A stretch of 64,000 nt of DNA from an uncultured Chloroflexia bacterium (GTDB taxonomy: Bacteria > Chloroflexota > Limnocylindria > Limnocylindrales > CSP1-4). Positions 17,019 through 36,784 of the stretch are shown here, in pieces (within the stretch, counting starts at the first letter, position 1; every line of letters starts with the position of its first letter). A program made the translations under genes and the position numbers. The stretch covers positions 320,001-384,000 of the forward strand of contig CAVVYR010000006.1 in assembly GCA_963752475.1 (NCBI GenBank). The letters run 5' to 3'. The notes beneath the pieces were generated by a model that saw only the letters and a program-made list of their open reading frames with translations, made no database searches and was not told where the DNA came from.

Positions 17019-18383
17019 ATGCGCCCCGACAAGTCTCGAACGCTGACCACCGCGCTAGTCGCGCTGCCTGCCGCCCTGGTCCTCTCGCTCGCGCCGGTCG
17101 CGGCACAGGACGCGAGCCCCTCGGTGACCGAGGCCTCGGCCGCTGCCGAGTGTGTGGAACCGGAGGCGTCGCAGGCGCCCGTCACCGACGAAGCGCTGTC
17201 GATGCCGGAAGACTTCCGCATCGCCCTCTTCGACGGCGTCTGGCAGGGTATCCGCGACTACTACATCGACCCGGACACCAACGGCCTCGACTGGGACGCC
17301 ATCGGCGACGAGTACGCCCCGCTGATCATCGCCACCGACAACGCGCACGAGGTCTATGCGCTCCTGGCCGAGATGGTCGAGACCCTCGAAGACCCCTACA
17401 CCGGCTTCTTCCAGCCCGAGGACCTGGGCGATCCCGCCGCCTTCGATCCCAGCTACGGCGGCATCGGCGCACTGCTCGACACCAGTGCCGCGGGCGAGGA
17501 TACGCCCGGCCTGCGCATCCTCTACGTCTTCGAGGGTGGCGCGGCCAAGGATGCCGGCATCGAGGCACGCGACAGCATCATCGGTGTCGAAGGTGACTCC
17601 TGCGCCCGTATCGCCGAGATCCGCGGCCCGGAAGGCACCGACGTCACGCTTACGGTCGTCTCGCCCGGTGAGGAGCCTCGAGATGTCACGCTCGATCGCC
17701 GCCGCATCGACCCGGTCATCGCGCCGGAGGTGCGCCGGCTCGAAGCCGACCCCGCGATCGGCTACCTGCAGGTGCTGGCGCTCTCCGGCCAGGAGGCCGT
17801 CGATGGCATCAAGCAGGGGCTGACCGAGCTGCTGCGCGGCGACGAGCCCCTCGAGGGCCTGGTGCTGGACCTGCGCTCCTCCAACCAGGGCGCACCCGGC
17901 GTGGTGCTCGAGGCGCTGGGCAGCTTCGTGGAGGGCGAGGTCGGCGAGTACCACTCGCGAGTGGGCAACGAGCCCATCGAGGTCAAGCCCAACGAGATCC
18001 ACCCGGACTACGCGGATCGGCCGCTGGCGGTGCTCGTGGATGAGGAGACCGAGGCCGACGCCGAGCAGCTCGCGGCCATCCTGCAGGACCAGGATCGAGC
18101 CACCATCGTGGGTACGCAGACCTCGGGCCAGACGCACGGCGCGACCATGGTCGATCTGCTCGATGGTTCGCTGCTCCAGATCGTCTCGTGGGGCTTCCAG
18201 CTGCCGGACGGGCAGACGCTCGAGGGCGTGGGCGTGACCCCGGATGTCGTCGTCGAGGACGACTGGCTGAGCTATCCGGAGGCAGACGACCCCTTCATCC
18301 TGGCCGCGCTCGAGGTGCTGTCGGCCGCGTCGGACGATGGTGACGTCGCCGAGGAGACCCCCGAGGCCGAAGCCGCGGGATAG
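17019..18383 (+). CDS. S41/CtpA-like protease homolog with PDZ domain, catalytic residues apparently lost
   Basis: LEDPYT, YGGIG, PDZ, LVLDLR, GVGVTPDV; the ASASE motif reads EADAE and the GKG motif reads GQT. Confidence 0.85.
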   Translation: MRPDKSRTLTTALVALPAALVLSLAPVAAQDASPSVTEASAAAECVEPEASQAPVTDEALSMPEDFRIALFDGVWQGIRDYYIDPDTNGLDWDAIGDEYAPLIIATDNAHEVYALLAEMVETLEDPYTGFFQPEDLGDPAAFDPSYGGIGALLDTSAAGEDTPGLRILYVFEGGAAKDAGIEARDSIIGVEGDSCARIAEIRGPEGTDVTLTVVSPGEEPRDVTLDRRRIDPVIAPEVRRLEADPAIGYLQVLALSGQEAVDGIKQGLTELLRGDEPLEGLVLDLRSSNQGAPGVVLEALGSFVEGEVGEYHSRVGNEPIEVKPNEIHPDYADRPLAVLVDEETEADAEQLAAILQDQDRATIVGTQTSGQTHGATMVDLLDGSLLQIVSWGFQLPDGQTLEGVGVTPDVVVEDDWLSYPEADDPFILAALEVLSAASDDGDVAEETPEAEAAG

Positions 18384-19361
18384 AGGTGGCAGGCCACCTC
18401 GTGGCCACCATCGAGCTCGACCAGCGGCGGGATCTCGCGCTCACACGTGCCCGCGATGGCGGCCGGACAGCGGGGCGCGAAGGCGCAGCCGATGGGCAGG
18501 TCACCGGCATCGGGTGGCTCGCCGCCGACCACCGGACGCTGGCGTAGCCGGTTCTGTGGATCGGCCTCGGGCACCGCGGCCAGTAGCGCCTGCGTGTAGG
18601 GGTGCCGAGCGTCCTCGATGAGGGCCTCGGCCGGCGCCAGCTCCACGATGCGCCCCGCGTACATGACCGCGATGCGGTCGGCGAAGTGACGGGCGCTCGC
18701 GAGGTCATGGGTGATGTAGAGGAAGGTCAGGTCGCGCTGCGCCTGCAGCTCCTTGAGCAGGTACAGGATCTCCGCTCGGCTTGAGGCGTCGATCATCGAC
18801 ACCGGTTCGTCGGCCACGAGGTAGTCGGGCTCGAGCACCATCGCGCGCGCGATCGAGACGCGTTGCCGCTGGCCGCCCGAGAGCGTGTGCGGGTACTTGT
18901 CGGCGAACTCGGTGGCCGGCCTGAGCTTGACCTGCTCGAGGGCCTCGATGACCGCGGCATCCTGCTCCGAGCGGTCCGAAGGGCCGTGGATGACGAGCGG
19001 CTCAGCCACCAGGTCACCGACGCGCATGTACGGGCTGAGGCTGGAGAACGGGTCCTGGAAGATGGCCTGCGCTCGCCGGCGGAACGAGAGCATGGCCGCT
19101 CCCTCGAGCCCGGCGATGTCCTCGCCCTCGAAGACGACCTGGCCGTCACTGGCATCGACGAGGCGGAGGGTGGCGCGCCCCAACGTCGTCTTGCCGCTGC
19201 CGGACTCGCCCACGACGGCCACCGTCTCGCCCATGGCCAGGTCGAGCGAGACGTCGGTGACAGCGGCGATGGGCCGCTCGCTGAAGAACGACTTGCGCAC
19301 GTAGAAGCGCACCGACAGTCCTTCGATGCGCAGCACCGGCCCGTCCTCGGCCGTCCACTCG
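18272..19361 (-). CDS. Oligopeptide ABC ATP-binding protein (OppF/DppF-like), native start removed at the IS junction
   Basis: GESGSGKT, LSGGQRQR, DEP, HPYT, C-terminal Cys cluster. Confidence 0.9.
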
Positions 19362-20418
19362 GGCGACGGCCCGGTGGTCGAGGCCCTGCTCGACGCCGGG
19401 CTGACCGTCGTCGTCATCAGCCCCAACCAGCTCAAGGGCCTCCGTTCGCGCTACGGCTCGGCCGGCAACAAGGACGACCGCTTCGACGCCTTCGTGCTCG
19501 CCGACACCCTGCGCACCGACCGGGCCCGGCTTCGCCCGCTGACCCAGGACACCGAGGCCACGCGGACCCTGCGCGCCACCGTGCGGGCCCGTCGCGACCT
19601 GGTCAGGCACCGCGTCGCGGTGTGCAACCAGCTTCGCGCCCACCTGCAGGCCACCTTCCCCGGCGTGGTCGGCCTGTTCGCAGAGCTGGACTCGCCGATC
19701 AGCCTGGCCTTCCTGGCCCGCTTCGACTCCCAGGCACGTGCCGACTGGCTCTCCCCCGGGCGGCTGGCGGCCTGGCTGGCCAGCGTCGGCTACAGCGGCC
19801 GCAAGGACCCCGCCGACCTCCATGCCCGACTGCAGGCCGCACCCCGGGGCCCGGTCGGACCCGACGGTGCCGCCCGGGCCCATGTCACCCGCGCCCTGCT
19901 CAGCGTGCTCGACGGCCTGGTCGAGCAGATCGGGACCCTCGAGGCGCAGATCACCGAGCAGCTCGCCCTTCACGCCGACGCCCACATCTTCCGGTCCCTG
20001 CCCCGCAGCGGCACCGTCCGCGCCGCCCGGCTGCTCGCCGAGATCGGCGACGTCCGCGCCCGCTTCCCCGACGCCGCCTCCCTGGCCTGCCTGGCCGGCG
20101 TCGCGCCCTCGACCAGACAGTCCGGCAAGCACCGAGCCGTCACGTTCCGATGGGCGGTCGACAAGGAGCTCCGCGACGCGGTCTGCGACTTCGCCGGCGA
20201 CTCCCGACGCGCCAACCCCTGGGCCGCGAAGATCTACGACGACGCCATCGCCCGGGGCAAGGACCACCCCCACGCGACCCGCATCCTGGCCCGTGCCTGG
20301 CTCGGCGCGATCTGGCGCTGCTGGCAGGATGACGCCGCCTACGAACCCGCCCGACACCACGCCCTCCAGGCCATGCAGGACACCGCCATGGCGGCCCAGG
20401 GTTGACAAGGGCTACTCA
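19362..20418 (+). mobile_element. 5'-truncated IS110 copy (lacks left end, bridge RNA and the start of the RuvC domain)
   Basis: Near-identical to 33564-34621 (I counted 4 substitutions and a 1-bp deletion by eye); ends in the CTCA core at the oppD stop. Confidence 0.95.
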
Positions 20419-21390
20419 TGCCGGCTCCTCTGGGTCGCGCCGGCGGTCGAGCCGCCAGCAGCGCGCGTGGTGGCCGGTCCCGACCTCGATGTAGGGCGGC
20501 GGTTCGCCACATCGTTCGTAGACCAGCGGACAGCGGGCGGCGAAGCGACAGCCACTGATGGGATCGCGCAGGTCCGGCGGCGCGCCGGGCAGGAAGTCGG
20601 GTGGCTCGGGGTCGTGCAGGCTGGGGATGCTCGCGAGCAGGCGCTGCGTGTAGGGGTCGGCTGGCGCCTCCAGCACGCGCTCGGCGGAGCCCAGCTCGCG
20701 CACCTGCCCGGCGTAGACCACGGCGATCGCGTCGCACAGGTCCGACGCCAGCGCCAGGTCGTGGGTGATGAAGAGCATCGAGATACGCCGCTCGGACTTG
20801 AGCTCCTTGAGCAGGTTCATGATCTGCGCCTGGATGCTCACATCGAGCGCGCTGGTGGGTTCGTCCAGGATGAGCAGCGGCGGATCGTGCGTCAGCGCCG
20901 AGGCGATCATCACGCGCTGCTTCATGCCGCCCGAGAGCTCGTGGGGGTAGCGATCGGCCACGGACACCGGTAGGCCCACGCGCGCGATCAATCCTTCGAC
21001 GCGGGTCCGCACGTCGGCCTTGCCCATGCCGTCCGAGCGCAGCCGCTCACCGACCTGGTCCCCCACGCGGATGACCGGGTTGAGCGAGTGCATCGCGCCC
21101 TGGAAGACCATAGCCATGCGGCTCCAGCGGATGTGCTTGCGGAAGGCCTCGTCATCGAGCTCGGTCAGCTCTTCGCCATCGAGCCGCACCGAGCCGCCGA
21201 CGAGCGTGCCGTTGCGCGGCAGCAGGCGCATGAGCGCGGTGGCCATGCTGGTCTTGCCCGAGCCCGATTCGCCGATGATGCCCAGGGCCTCGCCCTCGGC
21301 CAGGTCGAAGGAGATACCGTCCACCGCGCGCAGGGGGCCTCGCTCGGTGGAGTACTCGAGCGCCAGGTCGCGGGCTTCGAGGAGGGCCAC
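20416..21390 (-). CDS. Oligopeptide ABC ATP-binding protein (OppD/DppD-like)
   Basis: GESGSGKT, LSGGMKQR, DEPTSALD; TAGTG overlap with the permease. Confidence 0.92.
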   Translation of the reverse strand: MALLEARDLALEYSTERGPLRAVDGISFDLAEGEALGIIGESGSGKTSMATALMRLLPRNGTLVGGSVRLDGEELTELDDEAFRKHIRWSRMAMVFQGAMHSLNPVIRVGDQVGERLRSDGMGKADVRTRVEGLIARVGLPVSVADRYPHELSGGMKQRVMIASALTHDPPLLILDEPTSALDVSIQAQIMNLLKELKSERRISMLFITHDLALASDLCDAIAVVYAGQVRELGSAERVLEAPADPYTQRLLASIPSLHDPEPPDFLPGAPPDLRDPISGCRFAARCPLVYERCGEPPPYIEVGTGHHARCWRLDRRRDPEEPA

Positions 21391-22811
21391 TAGGAGCGCC
21401 TCAGCTTGGGGTTGACGATGGGCTCCATGGCCAGCGCGAGGAGCATGAAGGTCATGGCCGTGAGCACGATGAGCAAGCCAGGGGAGACGACCCACCACCA
21501 GTAGCCCAGGAAGACGGCGCCGGTGCGGAAGCCATCCTCGAGGATCTGGCCCCAGGTCGGCAGCGACGGATCGCCCAGGCCCAGGAACGAGAGGCCGGCC
21601 TCGGCCAGGATGACCGCGGGCACGAAGAAGATGAGCTGGGTGAAGACGTAGGGTGCCGTGTGCGGGAAGATGTGCTTCACGAGGATGTGCCGCGACGAGG
21701 CGCCCAGCGCCCGTGCCGCCTCCACCTCCTGGCTGCCCGACAGGCCCAGCACCATCGAGCGCACGAGGATCGTCAGCCCCGGCCACGAGAAGGCCACGAG
21801 CAGCACCAGGATGAGCCACAACTGGGCCCCGAAGACGAAGACGAAGAAGATCAGCAGCGGCAACAAGGGCACGTTGTTGACGACGTCCGCGGCGCGTTGG
21901 ATGACGAGGTCGATGCGACCGCCCTTGTAGCCGCTGAGCATGCCGAGCCCCGTGCCGATGACCGTCGAGACCGTGGCCGCGGCGATGCCGATGAGCAGCG
22001 CCACCGGCAGCCCGAAGGCGAGCCCCTGGGCCAGGTCACGCCCGGATCCGTCCGTGCCCAGGAGGCCGAAGACCGTACCGCCCACGACCGTCCGCATCCA
22101 GGCGATGTCATCGTCGGGGGCGGCCAGCGCGACGCGCACCTGGGTCACGTACTCGCCGTTGAGCGGCTCGGGCTCCCCCTCCGGGCCTGGCACCCCGAAG
22201 AGCCAGGCCGCGGTGTCGTTCTGGATCATCGAGGCCGGTACGGTCTCGCCGTACGTCTCGGCCAGCATCTCGGAGATGGCCTGGGCCGTCTCTGGCTCAG
22301 CGGTCAGCAGCACCCGCAGCGGCGTCTCGTCGTGGCGCACGAAGGGCGGCTCTTCGCCGGCCCTGGGGCCGCGGATGGTCGTGCGCAACAGCGACACGGA
22401 CGACCCATCGGGCCGCAGCAGCGTCACGCTCAGCGACGGCGGCCGCTCCTCGAAGGCGACGTCGCCCAGGCTGAAGGAGAGGAAGCTCGGCGCTTCGGAC
22501 GCGGTGTGCTCGTAGACCAGGTCGTGGATCTCGACCCGTGCATCGCCACGCTCGGTGGTCTCTGTGGCCTGGCCCGACTCGAGGATCGTGTGCTCGACCG
22601 CGTCACCGCTCAGCGTCGCGGTCCAGGCCGGTGGCACGGCCTTGGGATGGTCGGCCCACACCGCGGGGTTGGACCATCGCGTGGGCCCGAAGTCGAGCGG
22701 GAACGTGGCCAACACGAAGAGCGAGCTCAGGCCCAGGAGCAGGGCCAGGGCGACGCCGATCTTGCCGGCCGTGCTGTCGAGGACCTGCCGCAACAGGCTG
22801 CGCCGCCTCAC
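21390..22811 (-). CDS. Peptide ABC permease (OppC/DppC-like) with large extracytoplasmic insert
   Basis: LGTDGSGRD, EAARALGAS, EAGLSFLGLG. Confidence 0.9.
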   Translation of the reverse strand: MRRRSLLRQVLDSTAGKIGVALALLLGLSSLFVLATFPLDFGPTRWSNPAVWADHPKAVPPAWTATLSGDAVEHTILESGQATETTERGDARVEIHDLVYEHTASEAPSFLSFSLGDVAFEERPPSLSVTLLRPDGSSVSLLRTTIRGPRAGEEPPFVRHDETPLRVLLTAEPETAQAISEMLAETYGETVPASMIQNDTAAWLFGVPGPEGEPEPLNGEYVTQVRVALAAPDDDIAWMRTVVGGTVFGLLGTDGSGRDLAQGLAFGLPVALLIGIAAATVSTVIGTGLGMLSGYKGGRIDLVIQRAADVVNNVPLLPLLIFFVFVFGAQLWLILVLLVAFSWPGLTILVRSMVLGLSGSQEVEAARALGASSRHILVKHIFPHTAPYVFTQLIFFVPAVILAEAGLSFLGLGDPSLPTWGQILEDGFRTGAVFLGYWWWVVSPGLLIVLTAMTFMLLALAMEPIVNPKLRRS

Positions 22812-32015: not shown

Positions 32016-32829
32016 GCGCCGCGGCTGGCTGGGCCGCCATCTGGCCCCGATGGTCGTGGCCGTGATCTTCCTGCTGCCGCTGCTGTGGATGGTCACGACC
32101 TCGCTGCGCGGTCCCGGGCTGGCGCCACCCTCGACGGTCGAGTGGGTGCCGCCGCAGGCCACGGTCGGCAACTACGGCTCGGTCTTCGAGCTGCTGCCCT
32201 TCGGGCGCTATCTGCTCAACTCGCTCGTGGTGGTGGCGCTGGCGGTGCCGCTCACCATCGTCACGGCCTCGATGGCCGGCTTCGCCATGGCCCTGCTGGA
32301 GCGGCGGGTGAGGGGAGCGCTGCTGGTGCTCTCGGTGGCGTTGCTGCTGGTGCCGGTGACCGCGCTGTGGCTGACGCGCTTCCTGCTCTTCAACTGGGTC
32401 GGGCTGACCGACACGTTGGCCGCGCTGGTGGTCCCGGCGCTGGCGGGATCGAGCCCGCTGTTCGTGCTCATCTACTACTGGACCTTCCGTCGCGCGTCGG
32501 CCGAGGTCTTCGAGATGGCCCACCTCGACGGGGCGGGACCGCTGGGTGTCTGGCGCCGCATCGCCATGCCCAACGCCTGGCCCTCGACGGTGGCGGTGGC
32601 GGTACTGACGTTCATCCTCTACTGGAGCGACTTCATCAGCCCGCTGCTGTACCTGCGCGATCAGGACCTCTACACGCTGCCTCTGGGTCTACGACAGCTC
32701 CAGCAGCTCGACCCCACCGGCTGGCCGCTGCTGATGGCCGGCGCGGTCATGCTCACGCTGCCGGCGGTGCTCTTCTTCCTCGTCGTGGGGCGGCTCTTCC
32801 TCGGCGAGCGAGGTCTGGGTCGGGAGTAG
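32008..32829 (+). CDS. Sugar ABC permease
   Basis: EMAHLDGA EAA loop, WSDFISPL, TLPLGL. Confidence 0.9.
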   Translation: MSERRGWLGRHLAPMVVAVIFLLPLLWMVTTSLRGPGLAPPSTVEWVPPQATVGNYGSVFELLPFGRYLLNSLVVVALAVPLTIVTASMAGFAMALLERRVRGALLVLSVALLLVPVTALWLTRFLLFNWVGLTDTLAALVVPALAGSSPLFVLIYYWTFRRASAEVFEMAHLDGAGPLGVWRRIAMPNAWPSTVAVAVLTFILYWSDFISPLLYLRDQDLYTLPLGLRQLQQLDPTGWPLLMAGAVMLTLPAVLFFLVVGRLFLGERGLGRE

Positions 32830-33069
32830 TCAGGCCGCTTCGTAGGTCGCGAGGACGGTGCCTACCACCGCGTCCGCGCCGGCCTCGACGAGGATCTCGG
32901 TCAGGCGTCCCGCGGCCGGCATCTCCAGGTCGACGTTGGCCTTCTCGGTCTCGATCTCGGCGATGACCTCACCCTCCATGACCGTGTCGCCGACAGCCTT
33001 GAGCCAGGCGCTCACGCGGGCTTCATCGGTCTCGGCACCGAGGTTGGGCATCTTGATGGGGAGGCTCAC
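32830..33069 (-). CDS. Stand-alone lipoyl-domain protein (79 aa); GTG start created by the IS end
   Basis: IKMPNLG...W....GD.V..GE...EIETEKA lipoyl-Lys motif. Confidence 0.9.
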   Translation of the reverse strand: MSLPIKMPNLGAETDEARVSAWLKAVGDTVMEGEVIAEIETEKANVDLEMPAAGRLTEILVEAGADAVVGTVLATYEAA

Positions 33070-34622
33070 TGGTGCACCCTCTTCCTGTCGGTAGTCGCAG
33101 ATCGACTGCCGATGCACCCGAGGTGCCGTCGGGTCACTGCCCCGCTCGCTCGAACCTTCGAGGTCCAGCATGAGTTCCGCAGGGCCCGGCGGTCATCCGG
33201 GACGCCGTGACCGTCGACAGGGCTGTGCGCCATGGCCATCACCGGCCGGGAGCGCCGATCAGTGAGCTGACAGGCAGATGCGTCCCGGCACCGAGATGCG
33301 GGTGCCTCCCCACTGGGATCAGCAGCGAGGAGGCTGACATGCAGTCTGCCAGTATCACCCCGAGTCGGGGCTCGTCCGACCAGCCCGTCAGCGTCGCCGT
33401 CACCGGTGGCGTGGACTGGGCCAGCGCCGATCATGCCGTGGCCGTCGTCGACGACGATGGCCGCCAGCTCGCCCGCGAGCGCGTCGAGCACACCGCCGCG
33501 GGCCTGCGGGCGATGGTGCGGTTCCTGGCCGATCATGGCGTGGCCGAGGTCGCCATCGAGCGTGGCGACGGCCCGGTGGTCGAGGCCCTGCTCGACGCCG
33601 GGCTGACCGTCGTCGTCATCAGCCCCAACCAGCTCAAGGGCCTCCGTTCGCGCTACGGCTCGGCCGGCAACAAGGACGACCGCTTCGACGCCTTCGTGCT
33701 CGCCGACACCCTGCGCACCGACCGGGCCCGGCTTCGCCCGCTGACCCAGGACACCGAGGCCACGCGGACCCTGCGCGCCACCGTGCGGGCCCGTCGCGAC
33801 CTGGTCAGGCACCGCGTCGCGGTGTGCAACCAGCTTCGCGCCCACCTGCAGGCCACCTTCCCCGGCGTGGTCGGCCTGTTCGCAGAGCTGGACTCGCCGA
33901 TCAGCCTGGCCTTCCTGGCCCGCTTCGACTCCCAGGCACGTGCCGACTGGCTCTCCCCCGGGCGGCTGGCGGCCTGGCTGGCCAGCGTCGGCTACAGCGG
34001 CCGCAAGGACCCCGCCGACCTCCATGCCCGACTGCAGGCCGCACCCCGGGGCCCGGTCGGACCCGACGGTGCCGCCCGGGCCCATGTCACCCGCGCCCTG
34101 CTCAGCGTGCTCGACGGCCTGGTCGAGCAGATCGGGACCCTCGAGGCGCAGATCACCGAGCAGCTCGCCCTTCACGCCGACGCCCACATCTTCCGGTCCC
34201 TGCCCCGGAGCGGCACCGTCCGCGCCGCCCGGCTGCTCGCCGAGATCGGCGACGTCCGCGCCCGCTTCCCCGACGCCGCCTCCCTGGCCTGCCTGGCCGG
34301 CGTCGCGCCCTCGACCAGACAGTCCGGCAAGCACCGAGCCGTCACGTTCCGCTGGGCGGTCGACAAGGAGCTCCGCGACGCGGTCTGCGACTTCGCCGGC
34401 GACTCCCGACGCGCCAACCCCTGGGCCGCGAAGATCTATGACGACGCCATCGCCCGGGGCAAGGACCACCCCCACGCGACCCGCATCCTGGCCCGTGCCT
34501 GGCTCGGCGTGATCTGGCGCTGCTGGCAGGATGACGCCGCCTACGAACCCGCCCGACACCACGCCCTCCAGGCCATGCAGGACACCGCCATGGCGGCCCA
34601 GGGTTGACACAGGGCTACTCAT
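33066..34622 (-). CDS. Element-spanning antisense ORF (518 aa), Hed-like; putative translational-coupling relay
   Basis: Begins at the host ATG overlapping the upstream TGA and ends at a TGA overlapping the downstream GTG. Protein function unsupported. Confidence 0.45.
   Translation of the reverse strand: MSSPVSTLGRHGGVLHGLEGVVSGGFVGGVILPAAPDHAEPGTGQDAGRVGVVLAPGDGVVIDLRGPGVGASGVAGEVADRVAELLVDRPAERDGSVLAGLSGRGRDAGQAGQGGGVGEAGADVADLGEQPGGADGAAPGQGPEDVGVGVKGELLGDLRLEGPDLLDQAVEHAEQGAGDMGPGGTVGSDRAPGCGLQSGMEVGGVLAAAVADAGQPGRQPPGGEPVGTCLGVEAGQEGQADRRVQLCEQADHAGEGGLQVGAKLVAHRDAVPDQVATGPHGGAQGPRGLGVLGQRAKPGPVGAQGVGEHEGVEAVVLVAGRAVARTEALELVGADDDDGQPGVEQGLDHRAVATLDGDLGHAMIGQEPHHRPQARGGVLDALAGELAAIVVDDGHGMIGAGPVHATGDGDADGLVGRAPTRGDTGRLHVSLLAADPSGEAPASRCRDASACQLTDRRSRPVMAMAHSPVDGHGVPDDRRALRNSCWTSKVRASGAVTRRHLGCIGSRSATTDRKRVHQ
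33095..33320 (+). ncRNA. Putative IS110 bridge RNA (boundaries approximate)
   Basis: Non-coding left end with two internal loops whose strands match target (CTCGCTC, GCATGAG) and donor (ACAGGGCT, CAGTGAG) sequences. Confidence 0.7.
33339..34607 (+). CDS. IS110-family DEDD transposase/recombinase
   Basis: GVDWA, AIE, KDDRFDA (RuvC-like DEDD), AGVAPSTRQSG catalytic Ser; GAGGAGG RBS. Confidence 0.95.
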   Translation: MQSASITPSRGSSDQPVSVAVTGGVDWASADHAVAVVDDDGRQLARERVEHTAAGLRAMVRFLADHGVAEVAIERGDGPVVEALLDAGLTVVVISPNQLKGLRSRYGSAGNKDDRFDAFVLADTLRTDRARLRPLTQDTEATRTLRATVRARRDLVRHRVAVCNQLRAHLQATFPGVVGLFAELDSPISLAFLARFDSQARADWLSPGRLAAWLASVGYSGRKDPADLHARLQAAPRGPVGPDGAARAHVTRALLSVLDGLVEQIGTLEAQITEQLALHADAHIFRSLPRSGTVRAARLLAEIGDVRARFPDAASLACLAGVAPSTRQSGKHRAVTFRWAVDKELRDAVCDFAGDSRRANPWAAKIYDDAIARGKDHPHATRILARAWLGVIWRCWQDDAAYEPARHHALQAMQDTAMAAQG

Positions 34623-36784
34623 GCGTCGTCCTTTCCGGCCGCGGTCATGATGGCGGCCTCGATGTCGGCGTCCTGGATGTGCACGAAGTCCTCGAGCGGC
34701 TTGCTCACCGGCGAGTAGGCATCGAGGCCGGTCACGCGCAAGGGCGCGCTGCGCAGGAGCGCGTGCAGGTCGGGCTGCAGGTAGTCCAGGATGCGCCCGC
34801 CCATCGAGAGCGTGCGCTGGGCATCCTCGGCGATGACGAGCGCCCCCGTGCGAGCGACCGAATCCAGCACGGCCGCGCGCGGGAAGCTGGGCTCGTCGAG
34901 CCAGCGCGGGTCGAGGACCTCGGCTTCGACGCCGCGGTCGGCCAGCGTGGCGGTCACCTCTGCCACACGCGTGGCCGCGTAGCCCCAGGTCAGGACGGTC
35001 ACATCGCGCCCTGATCGCACCAGGCGTGCCTTCCCGAACTCGACCACGTGGTCGAAGCCGGCGCCCGGGAGCACACCCGTGATCTTGGCCAGGCGATGGT
35101 CGTCGATGATGAGCACCGGGTCACGACTGAGCACGGCCGCGTTCCAGCAGCCGACGTAGTCGGCCGGGGTCGTGGGTGCGGCCACGCGCCAGCCGGGATA
35201 GGACGTGAACAGGCCGGCCGGGTCGCAGGAGTGCTGCGGTCCGTAGCCGCGCCCCCGGGCGATCTGCGTGCGCGCGATGACGGGCACCTCGTGGTCGCCG
35301 CCATACATGTAGCGGCTCTTGGCGATGTGGTTGAAGAGCTGGTCGGTGGCCTCGAGTACGAAGTCGGGGTACATGAACTCGATGATCGGATGCATGCCCG
35401 CGAGCGCCGCTCCGAGGGCTGCGCCACTGAAGCCGTTCTCGCAGATGGGCGTCGAGAGGAGCTGCTGCGGGCGCGAGGCCACGGCTGACCGGGTCATGCC
35501 CACCGTGCCGCCGCCGAGGTGGCCGACCTCCTCGCCCAGGTAGATGGCCTCTGGGTCACGCTCGAGCGTGCGACCGATGACGCCCTGCGCGGCCTCGGCG
35601 TAGGTGACCGGCGCAGCCTCAGGGTCCGGCGTCGCGTCGAGGCGCTCGTAAGGGAGGTCCGGGAGGCCCGGGCCGAGCATGCCGCGATGGGCGTCCTCGA
35701 CCGGCGGGTAGAGCTCGGGCGGGATGGCTGGTCCGTCGTCGGTCTCGACCGTCAGTGCCGCCACGCAGCGGGCCACGAGCGCGTTGGCCAGGCCCTGCAC
35801 GTGCTGCACTTGCTCGGCACTGAGCAGCTCGGCTTCGATCACGCCGCGAGGCCAGGCGACCGCCGGGTCGCGATCCTTCCACTCGCGCTCCTCGTCCTTG
35901 CTGCGGTACTTGAAGGCCGAGCCGGGGAGGGGACCGTTCTGGTGGTAGTAGCGGTAGGTCACGGCTTCGACGAAGACCGGCCCGTGGGTGACCGCATGCT
36001 CGCGTGCTTGTGCCATCGCCTCGTATACCGCCACCGGGTCCATGCCGTCGACCACGAGCGCGGGCATGTCGTAGCCCGCGGCGCGCTTGGCCAGGCGCGT
36101 GAAGCCGGCCGTCTCCTGCACCGTGGTAGCGACCGAGTACTGGTTGTTCTCCAGCAGCAGGATGAGCGGCAGATCCCAGGCCCGCGCCAGTGCCGCCGCT
36201 TCGTGGAAGGCACCGATCTGGCTGGCACCGTCGCCGAACGAAGCCACGCCCACGTCACCCGTCCCGCGCAGCTTCGAGGCCAGGGCATAGCCGCCGGCGG
36301 GCGGGATGCCACCACCCACGATAGCCGTGGTCATGACACCGCCTTCGCGGTCCCACAGGTGCATCGAGCCGCCGCGGCCGTGGCAGAGCCCTTGTTCGAG
36401 GCCCATGATCTCGGCCATCGTGCGCTGCACGGGTTCGGCCATGGCCTCGGTCACCGTCTCGGCCGTGAAGGGGTCGAAGTCATCCGGGGTAGCCGAGAGC
36501 AGCAGCTTGGCCACCACGTCGTGATGGGCGCGATGGGTCGAGGTCAGCCAGTCACTCGGGCGCAAGGCCAGTGCCGCGCCCGTGGCCGTGGCCTCCTGGC
36601 CGATGCTCGAGTGCAGCGGTCCGTGCACCAGGCCCGCGTTGTCGAGCAGCCACTTCTCGAAGCGACGGATGGTCCCGATGCTGAGGATGGCCAGCCCCAG
36701 GCGGCGCTTGGGCGTGCCGGCGAGCACGTCCGTGGACAGCTCGTAGCGGGTGAGGCCGGGCGTCGTCGTCGGCTCTGCGGTCAT
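34619..36784 (-). CDS. Fused alpha/beta ThDP-dependent 2-oxoacid/acetoin dehydrogenase E1
   Basis: HSSIGQEA, GRGGSMH, GDG...ENN, STPICE, GPQHS. Confidence 0.92.
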   Translation of the reverse strand: MTAEPTTTPGLTRYELSTDVLAGTPKRRLGLAILSIGTIRRFEKWLLDNAGLVHGPLHSSIGQEATATGAALALRPSDWLTSTHRAHHDVVAKLLLSATPDDFDPFTAETVTEAMAEPVQRTMAEIMGLEQGLCHGRGGSMHLWDREGGVMTTAIVGGGIPPAGGYALASKLRGTGDVGVASFGDGASQIGAFHEAAALARAWDLPLILLLENNQYSVATTVQETAGFTRLAKRAAGYDMPALVVDGMDPVAVYEAMAQAREHAVTHGPVFVEAVTYRYYHQNGPLPGSAFKYRSKDEEREWKDRDPAVAWPRGVIEAELLSAEQVQHVQGLANALVARCVAALTVETDDGPAIPPELYPPVEDAHRGMLGPGLPDLPYERLDATPDPEAAPVTYAEAAQGVIGRTLERDPEAIYLGEEVGHLGGGTVGMTRSAVASRPQQLLSTPICENGFSGAALGAALAGMHPIIEFMYPDFVLEATDQLFNHIAKSRYMYGGDHEVPVIARTQIARGRGYGPQHSCDPAGLFTSYPGWRVAAPTTPADYVGCWNAAVLSRDPVLIIDDHRLAKITGVLPGAGFDHVVEFGKARLVRSGRDVTVLTWGYAATRVAEVTATLADRGVEAEVLDPRWLDEPSFPRAAVLDSVARTGALVIAEDAQRTLSMGGRILDYLQPDLHALLRSAPLRVTGLDAYSPVSKPLEDFVHIQDADIEAAIMTAAGKDDA

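Follow-up and report, generated by a model that had tools for sequence, protein, structure and literature searches.

We wondered how an insertion sequence (IS) might settle at the most sensitive point of an operon, the overlap between one gene's stop codon and the next gene's start codon, and what would then become of translation across that point. The question is raised by a 64,000-nucleotide stretch of DNA from an uncultured Chloroflexia bacterium (contig CAVVYR010000006.1, positions 320,001 to 384,000; hereafter the window, from whose first letter all coordinates are counted). Here an IS110-family element lies antisense between a 2-oxoacid dehydrogenase gene and a lipoyl-domain gene, and its reverse strand forms a single open reading frame (ORF) across the whole element. 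As judged by comparison with homologs, strong selection keeps this antisense frame open and in phase, and this is tied to the type of target that the element uses. We think it probable, from the same comparative evidence, that selection keeps the element translatable so that its insertion would be non-polar, with re-initiation on the gene downstream.

The element occupies 33065..34621 of the plus strand, with its body at 33069-34617. Comparison of junctions among its copies shows that each end bears the tetranucleotide CTCA (33065-33068 and 34618-34621), and the element period is 1553 bp, which is 2 mod 3. It carries a gene for a DEDD transposase/recombinase of 422 amino acids (aa; 33339..34607, plus strand). 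The product matches PF01548 in its N-terminal part (2e-36) and PF02371 in its C-terminal part (1.2e-18), and it scores 180.3 bits against the NCBIfam model NF033542, 'IS110 family RNA-guided transposase', for which the cut-off is 140. Upstream of the gene lies a nominally non-coding 5' region of 270 nt (33069..33338, plus strand), which we read as a bridge/seek RNA gene. The host genes are on the minus strand. The upstream one (36784..34619) encodes a fused 2-oxoacid dehydrogenase E1 alpha-beta protein of 721 aa (PF00676, PF02779, PF02780; all its scores against the NCBIfam E1 alpha and beta models are under the cut-offs) and ends in GCA TGA. Its stop codon (TGA, 34621-34619) overlaps a host ATG (34622-34620) that has been captured as the start of the antisense ORF. 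This ORF (34622..33066, minus strand; 518 codons from ATG to TGA) follows the codon-aligned antisense frame of the transposase, continues through the 270-nt region and stops at the TGA 33068-33066. That TGA in turn overlaps a GTG (33069-33067), which is now the start of the downstream host gene for a lipoyl-domain protein of 79 aa (32830..33069, minus strand; PF00364, 5e-19); in the uninterrupted ortholog this start is ATG. Both start codons follow sequences that resemble a Shine-Dalgarno (SD) motif. Before the captured ATG this is GGAAAGGA (34629..34636, minus strand), 6 nt upstream within the end of the E1 gene, and before the regenerated GTG it is the purine-rich GGAAGAGGG (33085..33077, minus strand), 7 nt upstream within the left end of the element. 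The antisense insertion in an operon with the order gene 1-ATGA-IS ORF-GTGA-gene 2, the 518-codon ORF with its TGA overlapping a new GTG, and the purine-rich tract had been described in an original prediction made from the letters of this stretch, and all were found as it had them.

The state before insertion can be seen in a genome of the same genus (G014), where the orthologous site reads ..GGAAAGGACGACGCATGAGCACACCCATCAAGATGCCC.. and has an ATGA overlap with no IS. This empty site contains CTCA once, and GGAAAGGA precedes its ATG too. This shows the overlap to be native and confirms the insertion point, together with the ATG AGC start that the original prediction had reconstructed for the lipoyl gene; the ortholog and a paralog both begin with ATG AGC xxx CCC ATC AAG ATG CCC. 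An alternative crossover with the target ..GGCTACTCATGC.. is ruled out, as ortholog and paralog read M-S-x-P-I-K-M-P with no extra residue. The ends of the element, CTGGTGCACC.. and ..CAGGGCTA, are not inverted repeats, and the flanks are similar among copies.

How surprising is such an ORF in one element? A warning had been attached to the original prediction that the codon-aligned antisense frame is often open in GC-rich genes. In the coding-like ORFs of this genome, 0.44% of codons are antisense stops (TTA, CTA or TCA), and the probability that an aligned antisense frame is open over 422 codons is between 0.16 (resampling) and 0.23 (173/764 genes of the genome). The 270-nt region is open in the antisense frame in 20% of dinucleotide shuffles. 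With a one-in-three chance assumed for the correct phase, the combined chance for a single element is about 0.01-0.015; one copy taken alone is suggestive and exceeds chance only mildly. Distant IS110 transposases match the neutral expectation of 0.16-0.23 open: among 14 such genes of the same bacterial family (<50% identity) 3 have no antisense stop, and the mean is 1.1 stops. The sole other IS110 relative in the element's own genome (33% identity) has one antisense stop.

Comparison with close homologs raises the open antisense frame far above chance. One genome per species was scanned, and the best 80 of 456 relatives were taken, with transposases of 67-93% aa identity. Nearly all of these loci come from Actinobacteria, and mycobacterial members exist (e.g. 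L039). Cultured carriers among them include Jiangella anatolica (L032), Blastococcus capsensis (L055) and Actinoallomurus acaciae (L023). The aligned antisense frame was free of stops across the transposase in 63/80 homologs. The left-terminal motif, searched for without regard to frame, was located in 77/80; in 63 of these 77 its terminal TCA was in register with the transposase codons, with 6 and 8 in the other phases. Across the non-coding part, antisense frame 0 was stop-free in 63/77 and the other two frames in 4/77 and 1/77. The antisense stop was always the TCA of a conserved left junction, ..GC TCA CTGGTGCACC... The right end is conserved as ..GCT TGA CAC AGG GCT (A/T)CT CA, then T or C, and the in-frame junction triplet is the complement of ATG or GTG in most homolog loci.

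The phase is also held across changes in length. We counted the length of the non-coding part from the terminus to a conserved anchor within it. Of 46 elements open from end to end, 40 share one phase at 13 different lengths (217 to 268), and the remaining 6 carry a 1-nt shift whose compensation lies between anchor and gene. Among the 18 elements that are not open, the phases are spread 6/6/6. That the periodicity of length is a product of the coding N-terminus of the transposase was ruled out by the terminus-to-anchor distances alone.

Codon usage within the transposase gene points in the same direction. A junction triplet of CAT or CAC defines the start-junction class of 54 loci, all distinct at the DNA level; in these, TTA, CTA and TCA account for 0/21,968 transposase codons, with about 84 expected. 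Coding-like ORFs in the flanks of the same loci have 133/34,793 (Fisher 9e-29, with codons taken as independent). Other rare codons do occur in these transposases (CTT 39, TTG 108, TCT 46, AGT 41), and NNA codons are commoner in them than in the flanks (6.5% vs 4.5%); hence rare codons, or those that end in A, are not avoided as a whole. In the other-target class, the 13 loci whose junction triplet is a different one, antisense-stop codons number 49/5,255, and all 13 show antisense stops or a shifted phase. When junction type was set against openness for the 65 rows scored, 47 were start-type and open, 5 start-type and not open, 13 other-type and not open, and none other-type and open. One of the five, L059, reflects a misplaced left-end motif and is open and in phase by direct check; it was kept as scored. 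That homologs would be free of stops in the antisense frame, as had been anticipated, was borne out for the start-junction class, and the property is lost in the other-target class.

The choice of target can be traced to the 270-nt region. The original prediction took it for a non-coding end that stays open on the antisense strand; the openness stood, and what had been overlooked is that, by its fold and covariation, the region is a bridge/seek RNA gene. A consensus fold of 28 diverse homologs has 62 pairs, 29 of them with compensatory changes, and forms two stem-internal-loop-hairpin domains that bear the guide segments. The single-sequence fold of 33100-33300 has a z of -1.5 and is uninformative alone. 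An Rfam scan of the element at a permissive E-value, with a library that has no bridge RNA family, returned only a chance-level match to EAV_LTH (E 0.86). The names and order of the guides follow those reported for the IS621 bridge RNA by Durrant et al. in 2024. The putative guides are a left-target guide CCCCGCTC at about 33140-33147, a right-target guide GCATGAG at 33168-33174, a left-donor guide ACAGGGCT at 33217-33224 and a right-donor guide CAGTGAG at 33260-33266.

The right-target guide is a 7-mer, NNNTGAG, that lies about 100 nt from the left end (about 140 nt in longer versions) and is complementary to the right junction CTCANNN. It covaries with that junction, with 17 variants and agreement in about 40 of 53 rows; pairs of guide and junction include GCATGAG/CTCATGC (window), TCATGAG/CTCATGA, CTGTGAG/CTCACAG, GCGTGAG/CTCACGC and CTCTGAG/CTCAGAG. 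The left-target guide, about 25 nt further upstream, matches the left flank in the same sense up to ..GCTC, less strictly. On the donor side, ACAGGGCT matches the right end and turns into ATAGGGCT where the right end does, and CAGTGAG is complementary to CTCA plus the first left-end bases and becomes CAATGAG in the sole locus with CTCATTG. This covariation of the RNA guides explains both the site and the orientation of insertion. In most lineages the guides specify CTCA followed by T or C, which on the other strand reads ATGAG or GTGAG, a start codon that runs on into a serine codon. A different target, roughly CTC(A/G)(G/A)AGG(C/T)GGGCA, with several sites per genome and a guide CTCTGAG or CTCCGAG, is shared by the lineages that lack the antisense ORF (L046, L049, L061, L068, L069, L073, L074, L077, L086 and L087). 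This target looks like a repeated intergenic sequence.

We analyzed where the elements of the start-junction class have inserted, using as a control all 8,232 (A/G)TGAGC sites of this genome. The insertions are always antisense to the host gene. The TGA at the junction is the stop of a host ORF in 16/45 loci (control 2.4%), and the regenerated start opens a host ORF in 19/37 (control 18.7%). Both conditions hold in 9/35 loci and at 1.2% of control sites, an enrichment at (A/G)TGA overlaps of the kind that had been foreseen. GGAGG-like sequences stand 5-9 nt before the captured start in many right flanks. At the exit from the element, the regenerated start is preceded at 3-20 nt by AGGA, GGAG or GAGG in 36/50 start-class loci, in 0/13 of the other class and in 6/13 unclassified ones.

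Taken together, these observations suggest the following sequence of events. The target guides, ..GCTCA(T/C)(G/A)N.., are complementary to a start codon with AGC behind it, and they direct the element to start codons, in many cases to the 4-nt (A/G)TGA overlaps within operons, always antisense to the host gene. After insertion, the host ribosome-binding site and ATG at the right junction open a frame across the complete element. Since the period is 2 mod 3, the frame closes on the TGA in the left-junction copy of CTCA, where the last base of the element makes a new GTG (in GTGA) for the interrupted gene, with the purine tract of the element end just upstream. Ribosomes would start at the host ATG, or pass over to it from the upstream gene at the ATGA, and translate through the element, so that the operon mRNA may stay covered by ribosomes and escape Rho-type polarity. 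They would then stop at the GTGA and re-initiate on the interrupted gene by termination-reinitiation. An insertion of this kind would be nearly harmless to the host, and the element could persist.

Is it the frame that is selected, or the peptide that it encodes? The openness of the frame is selected and the peptide is not conserved, as far as the homologs allow us to judge, and there is no sign of a constrained peptide. Read in the antisense frame, the non-coding part has a flat GC content by codon position (0.63/0.67/0.69). The C-terminal 90 or so residues come from the same DNA read in different frames across lineages, with the frame restored downstream by compensated frameshifts. No Pfam family matched the product of the 518-codon ORF. 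Over the transposase, 149 pairs of 80-98.5% identity gave a median ratio of nonsynonymous to synonymous substitution rates (dN/dS) of 1.29 (0.84-1.95) in the antisense frame vs 0.26 in the sense frame, where the median dS of 0.46 is not depressed; the antisense ratio is confounded by the overlap with the transposase and is not decisive.

These results bear on a reading in which host translation signals are captured to express an antisense protein of the element itself, for transposition or its control, and restart of the host gene is a by-product. The model for this is hed of IS900. By the title of a report by Doran et al. in 1997, IS900 is said to target translation initiation signals to express hed, and its insertion reportedly falls between the ribosome-binding site and the ATG. 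In IS900 of Mycobacterium avium subsp. paratuberculosis, likewise of the IS110 family, the hed antisense ORF spans the element and has no ribosome-binding site or start of its own, as described in an excerpt of PMC8141618. The antisense ORF described here depends on host signals in the same way and is under selection for openness, which is what a hed-like protein would call for. The high antisense dN/dS (confounded as it is by the overlap), the sense dS that is not depressed, the tail read in differing frames, the flat GC content and the lack of a Pfam match all speak against such a protein. Expression of a protein would also leave unexplained why the SD-like motif at the exit is confined to lineages that target start codons and why the TGA and GTG overlap exactly. 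We regard this reading as unlikely, though it is the main rival to the relay.

Another possibility is that the open frame secures full-length, Rho-resistant antisense transcription over the genes for the transposase and the bridge RNA, which would mute integrated copies by transcriptional interference or antisense RNA and have no part in feeding the downstream gene. The constant antisense orientation to the host gene would suit this, as would selection that acts on openness and not on the peptide. So would the right end of the element, where the transposase stop is overlapped by a TTGACA hexamer (34604..34609, plus strand) that almost every homolog keeps as GCT TGA CAC AGG GCT. Were the ends joined in a circle, TTGACA would stand about 18 nt before CACCCT/CACCAT of the left end. 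It is possible that the hexamer is the -35 element of a circle-junction promoter for the bridge RNA and the transposase; the element's own promoter would then be complete only in the circle, and integrated copies would depend on transcription from outside. Junction promoters of IS110/IS1111 circles are mentioned in an excerpt of PMC11187229. A simple promoter scan of the linear sequence from 32700 to 35000 gave no promoter-like site, and the circle junction was not seen among the run contigs examined. The same region contains one terminator-like site, on the plus strand at 32756, outside the element, which is neutral on read-through. Muting by antisense transcription has no need for a frame that ends exactly at the junction, for the 2 mod 3 phase or for an SD-like tract before the regenerated start, and it leaves the enrichment at stop/start overlaps unexplained. 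We hold it to be improbable, more so than expression of a hed-like protein.

Chance combined with GC-rich codon usage, under which aligned antisense frames are often open (as in the 173 of 764 genes and the 3 of 14 distant IS110 genes above) and the 270-nt end is open by luck (as in a fifth of the shuffles), is very improbable and effectively refuted for this clade by the complete absence of antisense-stop codons where some 84 were expected, by a phase held across 13 non-coding lengths with compensated frameshifts and other frames that are rarely open, by the loss of the ORF exactly in lineages with other targets, and by homologs that are not near-clonal (54 distinct sequences; the sense dS given above).

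We therefore return to the reading in which the element is kept translatable so that ribosomes can cross it, and several points weigh against this. Translation of the antisense ORF and rescue of the downstream gene are inferred from the sequence. A junk protein of 518 residues made at the level of an operon would be costly. Among the scorable start-class insertions, 15/35 lie at neither a recognisable gene start nor a recognisable gene end, so a relay of ribosomes cannot matter at every copy; the ORFs in the flanks were called heuristically (at least 100 codons and a GC content at third codon positions (GC3) of at least 0.8) and are not gene predictions. The G that makes the GTG is common to all classes, so its presence does not by itself speak for adaptation. 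On the transposase tree there are 5 changes of junction type, and the 4 independent pairs all run in the expected direction (sign test, p = 0.125), a comparison that is underpowered. Many homolog loci come from metagenome bins. Finally, a paralog of the E1/lipoyl pair lies on another contig, and the insertion in the window might be tolerated anyway. This paralogous operon, on contig C16 (L004, about 1540-1600), is 90% identical over the E1 end and has no IS; its genes do not overlap, the junction being TAA, GAGGAG, ATG. A joint between 33060 and 34618 with CGTG between, seen in run X2, was considered as an empty site of the element and rejected, as it is this paralogous operon.

The genome contains two full copies of the element, 100% identical and on the same contig, and one partial copy. 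The second intact copy has genes for an ABC ATPase and an ABC-2 permease as its neighbours, again in the order ATGA ... GTGA. The partial copy (19362..20421, plus strand) lies between genes for OppD-like and OppF-like ATPases (region 18272-21819). The original prediction had named it as a second copy abutting the GCA TGA stop of oppD. It does adjoin that stop of the OppD-like gene; it is a decayed relic, in which the left 500 bp or so are missing and 1 nt has been deleted near the right end. The large deletion probably also took the first codons of the OppF-like gene. Owing to the 1-nt deletion, the captured ATG is no longer in frame with the antisense ORF; any relay is broken in this copy, and its downstream gene may be dead.

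Sequencing runs add further observations on the element. Run X1, a sediment metagenome, contains a collapsed repeat contig of 1561 nt (33064-34624). Loose ends at 33063-33064 in this run join the left end of the element to at least two other flanks, one of them that of the second genomic copy, so that further insertion sites exist in that population. The RNA-library contigs X11 and X17, which are unstranded and carry no information on level, span parts of the element. In the window, the frame of the lipoyl gene is open for 34 codons into the element, up to a minus-strand ATG at 33169-33171 (ORF 32830..33171). This ATG, complementary to the right-target guide, recurs in the second copy (L002, ATG 1614). 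A lipoyl product with an N-terminal extension starting there is conceivable from the sequence; no SD-like motif was found before this ATG. Among the homologs, the transposase frame has one in-frame stop in L008, L026, L037 and L065, three of which (L008, L026 and L065) retain an open antisense ORF. An apparent stop in the transposase of L012 is merely a shorter C-terminus.

If the proposed relay is true, an operon can take up a transposon at its most sensitive point and not be silenced, which would explain the persistence of these elements at gene starts. The element would be a translated spacer that preserves expression of the operon, and a natural example of selection for being translatable and not for a protein, a rare case in which the openness of an ORF alone is the trait. 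Looking beyond this locus, we lean towards the view, a little less firmly than for the relay, that these RNA-guided IS110 elements form a widespread, 'translationally transparent' clade of actinobacteria-borne transposons, with guides that evolved for start codons and ATGA overlaps and a reverse strand forming a peptide-indifferent ORF that leads to an SD-preceded GTG. Such an antisense ORF would be mistaken by annotation pipelines for noise or for a hypothetical protein. The opposite strand of a bridge RNA gene can also be under a second constraint, which is relevant to the mining and engineering of IS110 recombinases and their RNAs. The hed puzzle of 1997 also becomes testable, in that the comparison predicts polarity from synonymous antisense stops and not from peptide changes. 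A full-text literature search retrieved no paper on a translation relay through an IS110 element, on codon-level selection on such an ORF or on its overlap with a bridge RNA, an absence that is no proof.

How does the element compare with known systems? It has the features of the IS110 family (IS110-type subgroup), namely a DEDD transposase with PF01548 and PF02371, a predicted RNA gene in the long non-coding region upstream, no terminal inverted repeats, a short shared core and a sequence-specific target. Like the bridge RNA or seekRNA elements IS621 and ISEc11, it combines a DEDD recombinase with two internal-loop domains and covarying target and donor guides, the RNA gene being a predicted one here. 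Those elements mostly target repeats or intergenic sites, unlike the present clade. To our knowledge, the strand opposite the RNA gene and the transposase has not been described as a selected ORF in the relatives of IS621 and ISEc11. For IS110-type elements, an excerpt of PMC11187229 states that the non-coding region upstream of the gene encodes an RNA matching both target strands. A transposon with a built-in device that limits damage to the interrupted host gene is known from the IStrons, as far as an excerpt of PMC13521648 describes them, and the relay would be their counterpart at the level of translation. Unlike the self-splicing IStrons, which are removed from the mRNA, the present element would remain part of the mRNA, with ribosomes translating across it, and there is no sequence relationship between the two. 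Overlaps of 4 nt are common in unidirectional gene pairs and tightly coupled, according to excerpts of PMC10666635 and PMC12548453, and both junctions of the element reproduce this -4 overlap in the manner of ATGA/GTGA translational coupling. Unlike in ordinary coupled overlaps, the 'middle gene' here is the reverse strand of a mobile element.

The closest likeness is to IS900 and hed, with a whole-element antisense ORF that lacks a ribosome-binding site and start of its own and with insertion in one orientation beside a host ribosome-binding site and start codon. Unlike IS900, with its reported insertion between ribosome-binding site and ATG, the present clade inserts inside the start codon or directly behind it (ATGAG|C), captures the host ATG and regenerates a GTG that overlaps the TGA of the ORF. 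A further difference is that selection on the frame is shown here by comparison, that the peptide appears unconstrained and that the ORF overlaps a bridge RNA gene; the likeness to IS900 drawn here is one of arrangement. The element is thus an IS110 member that works like IS900/hed, with a different insertion point and with a rationale that is both different and better supported.

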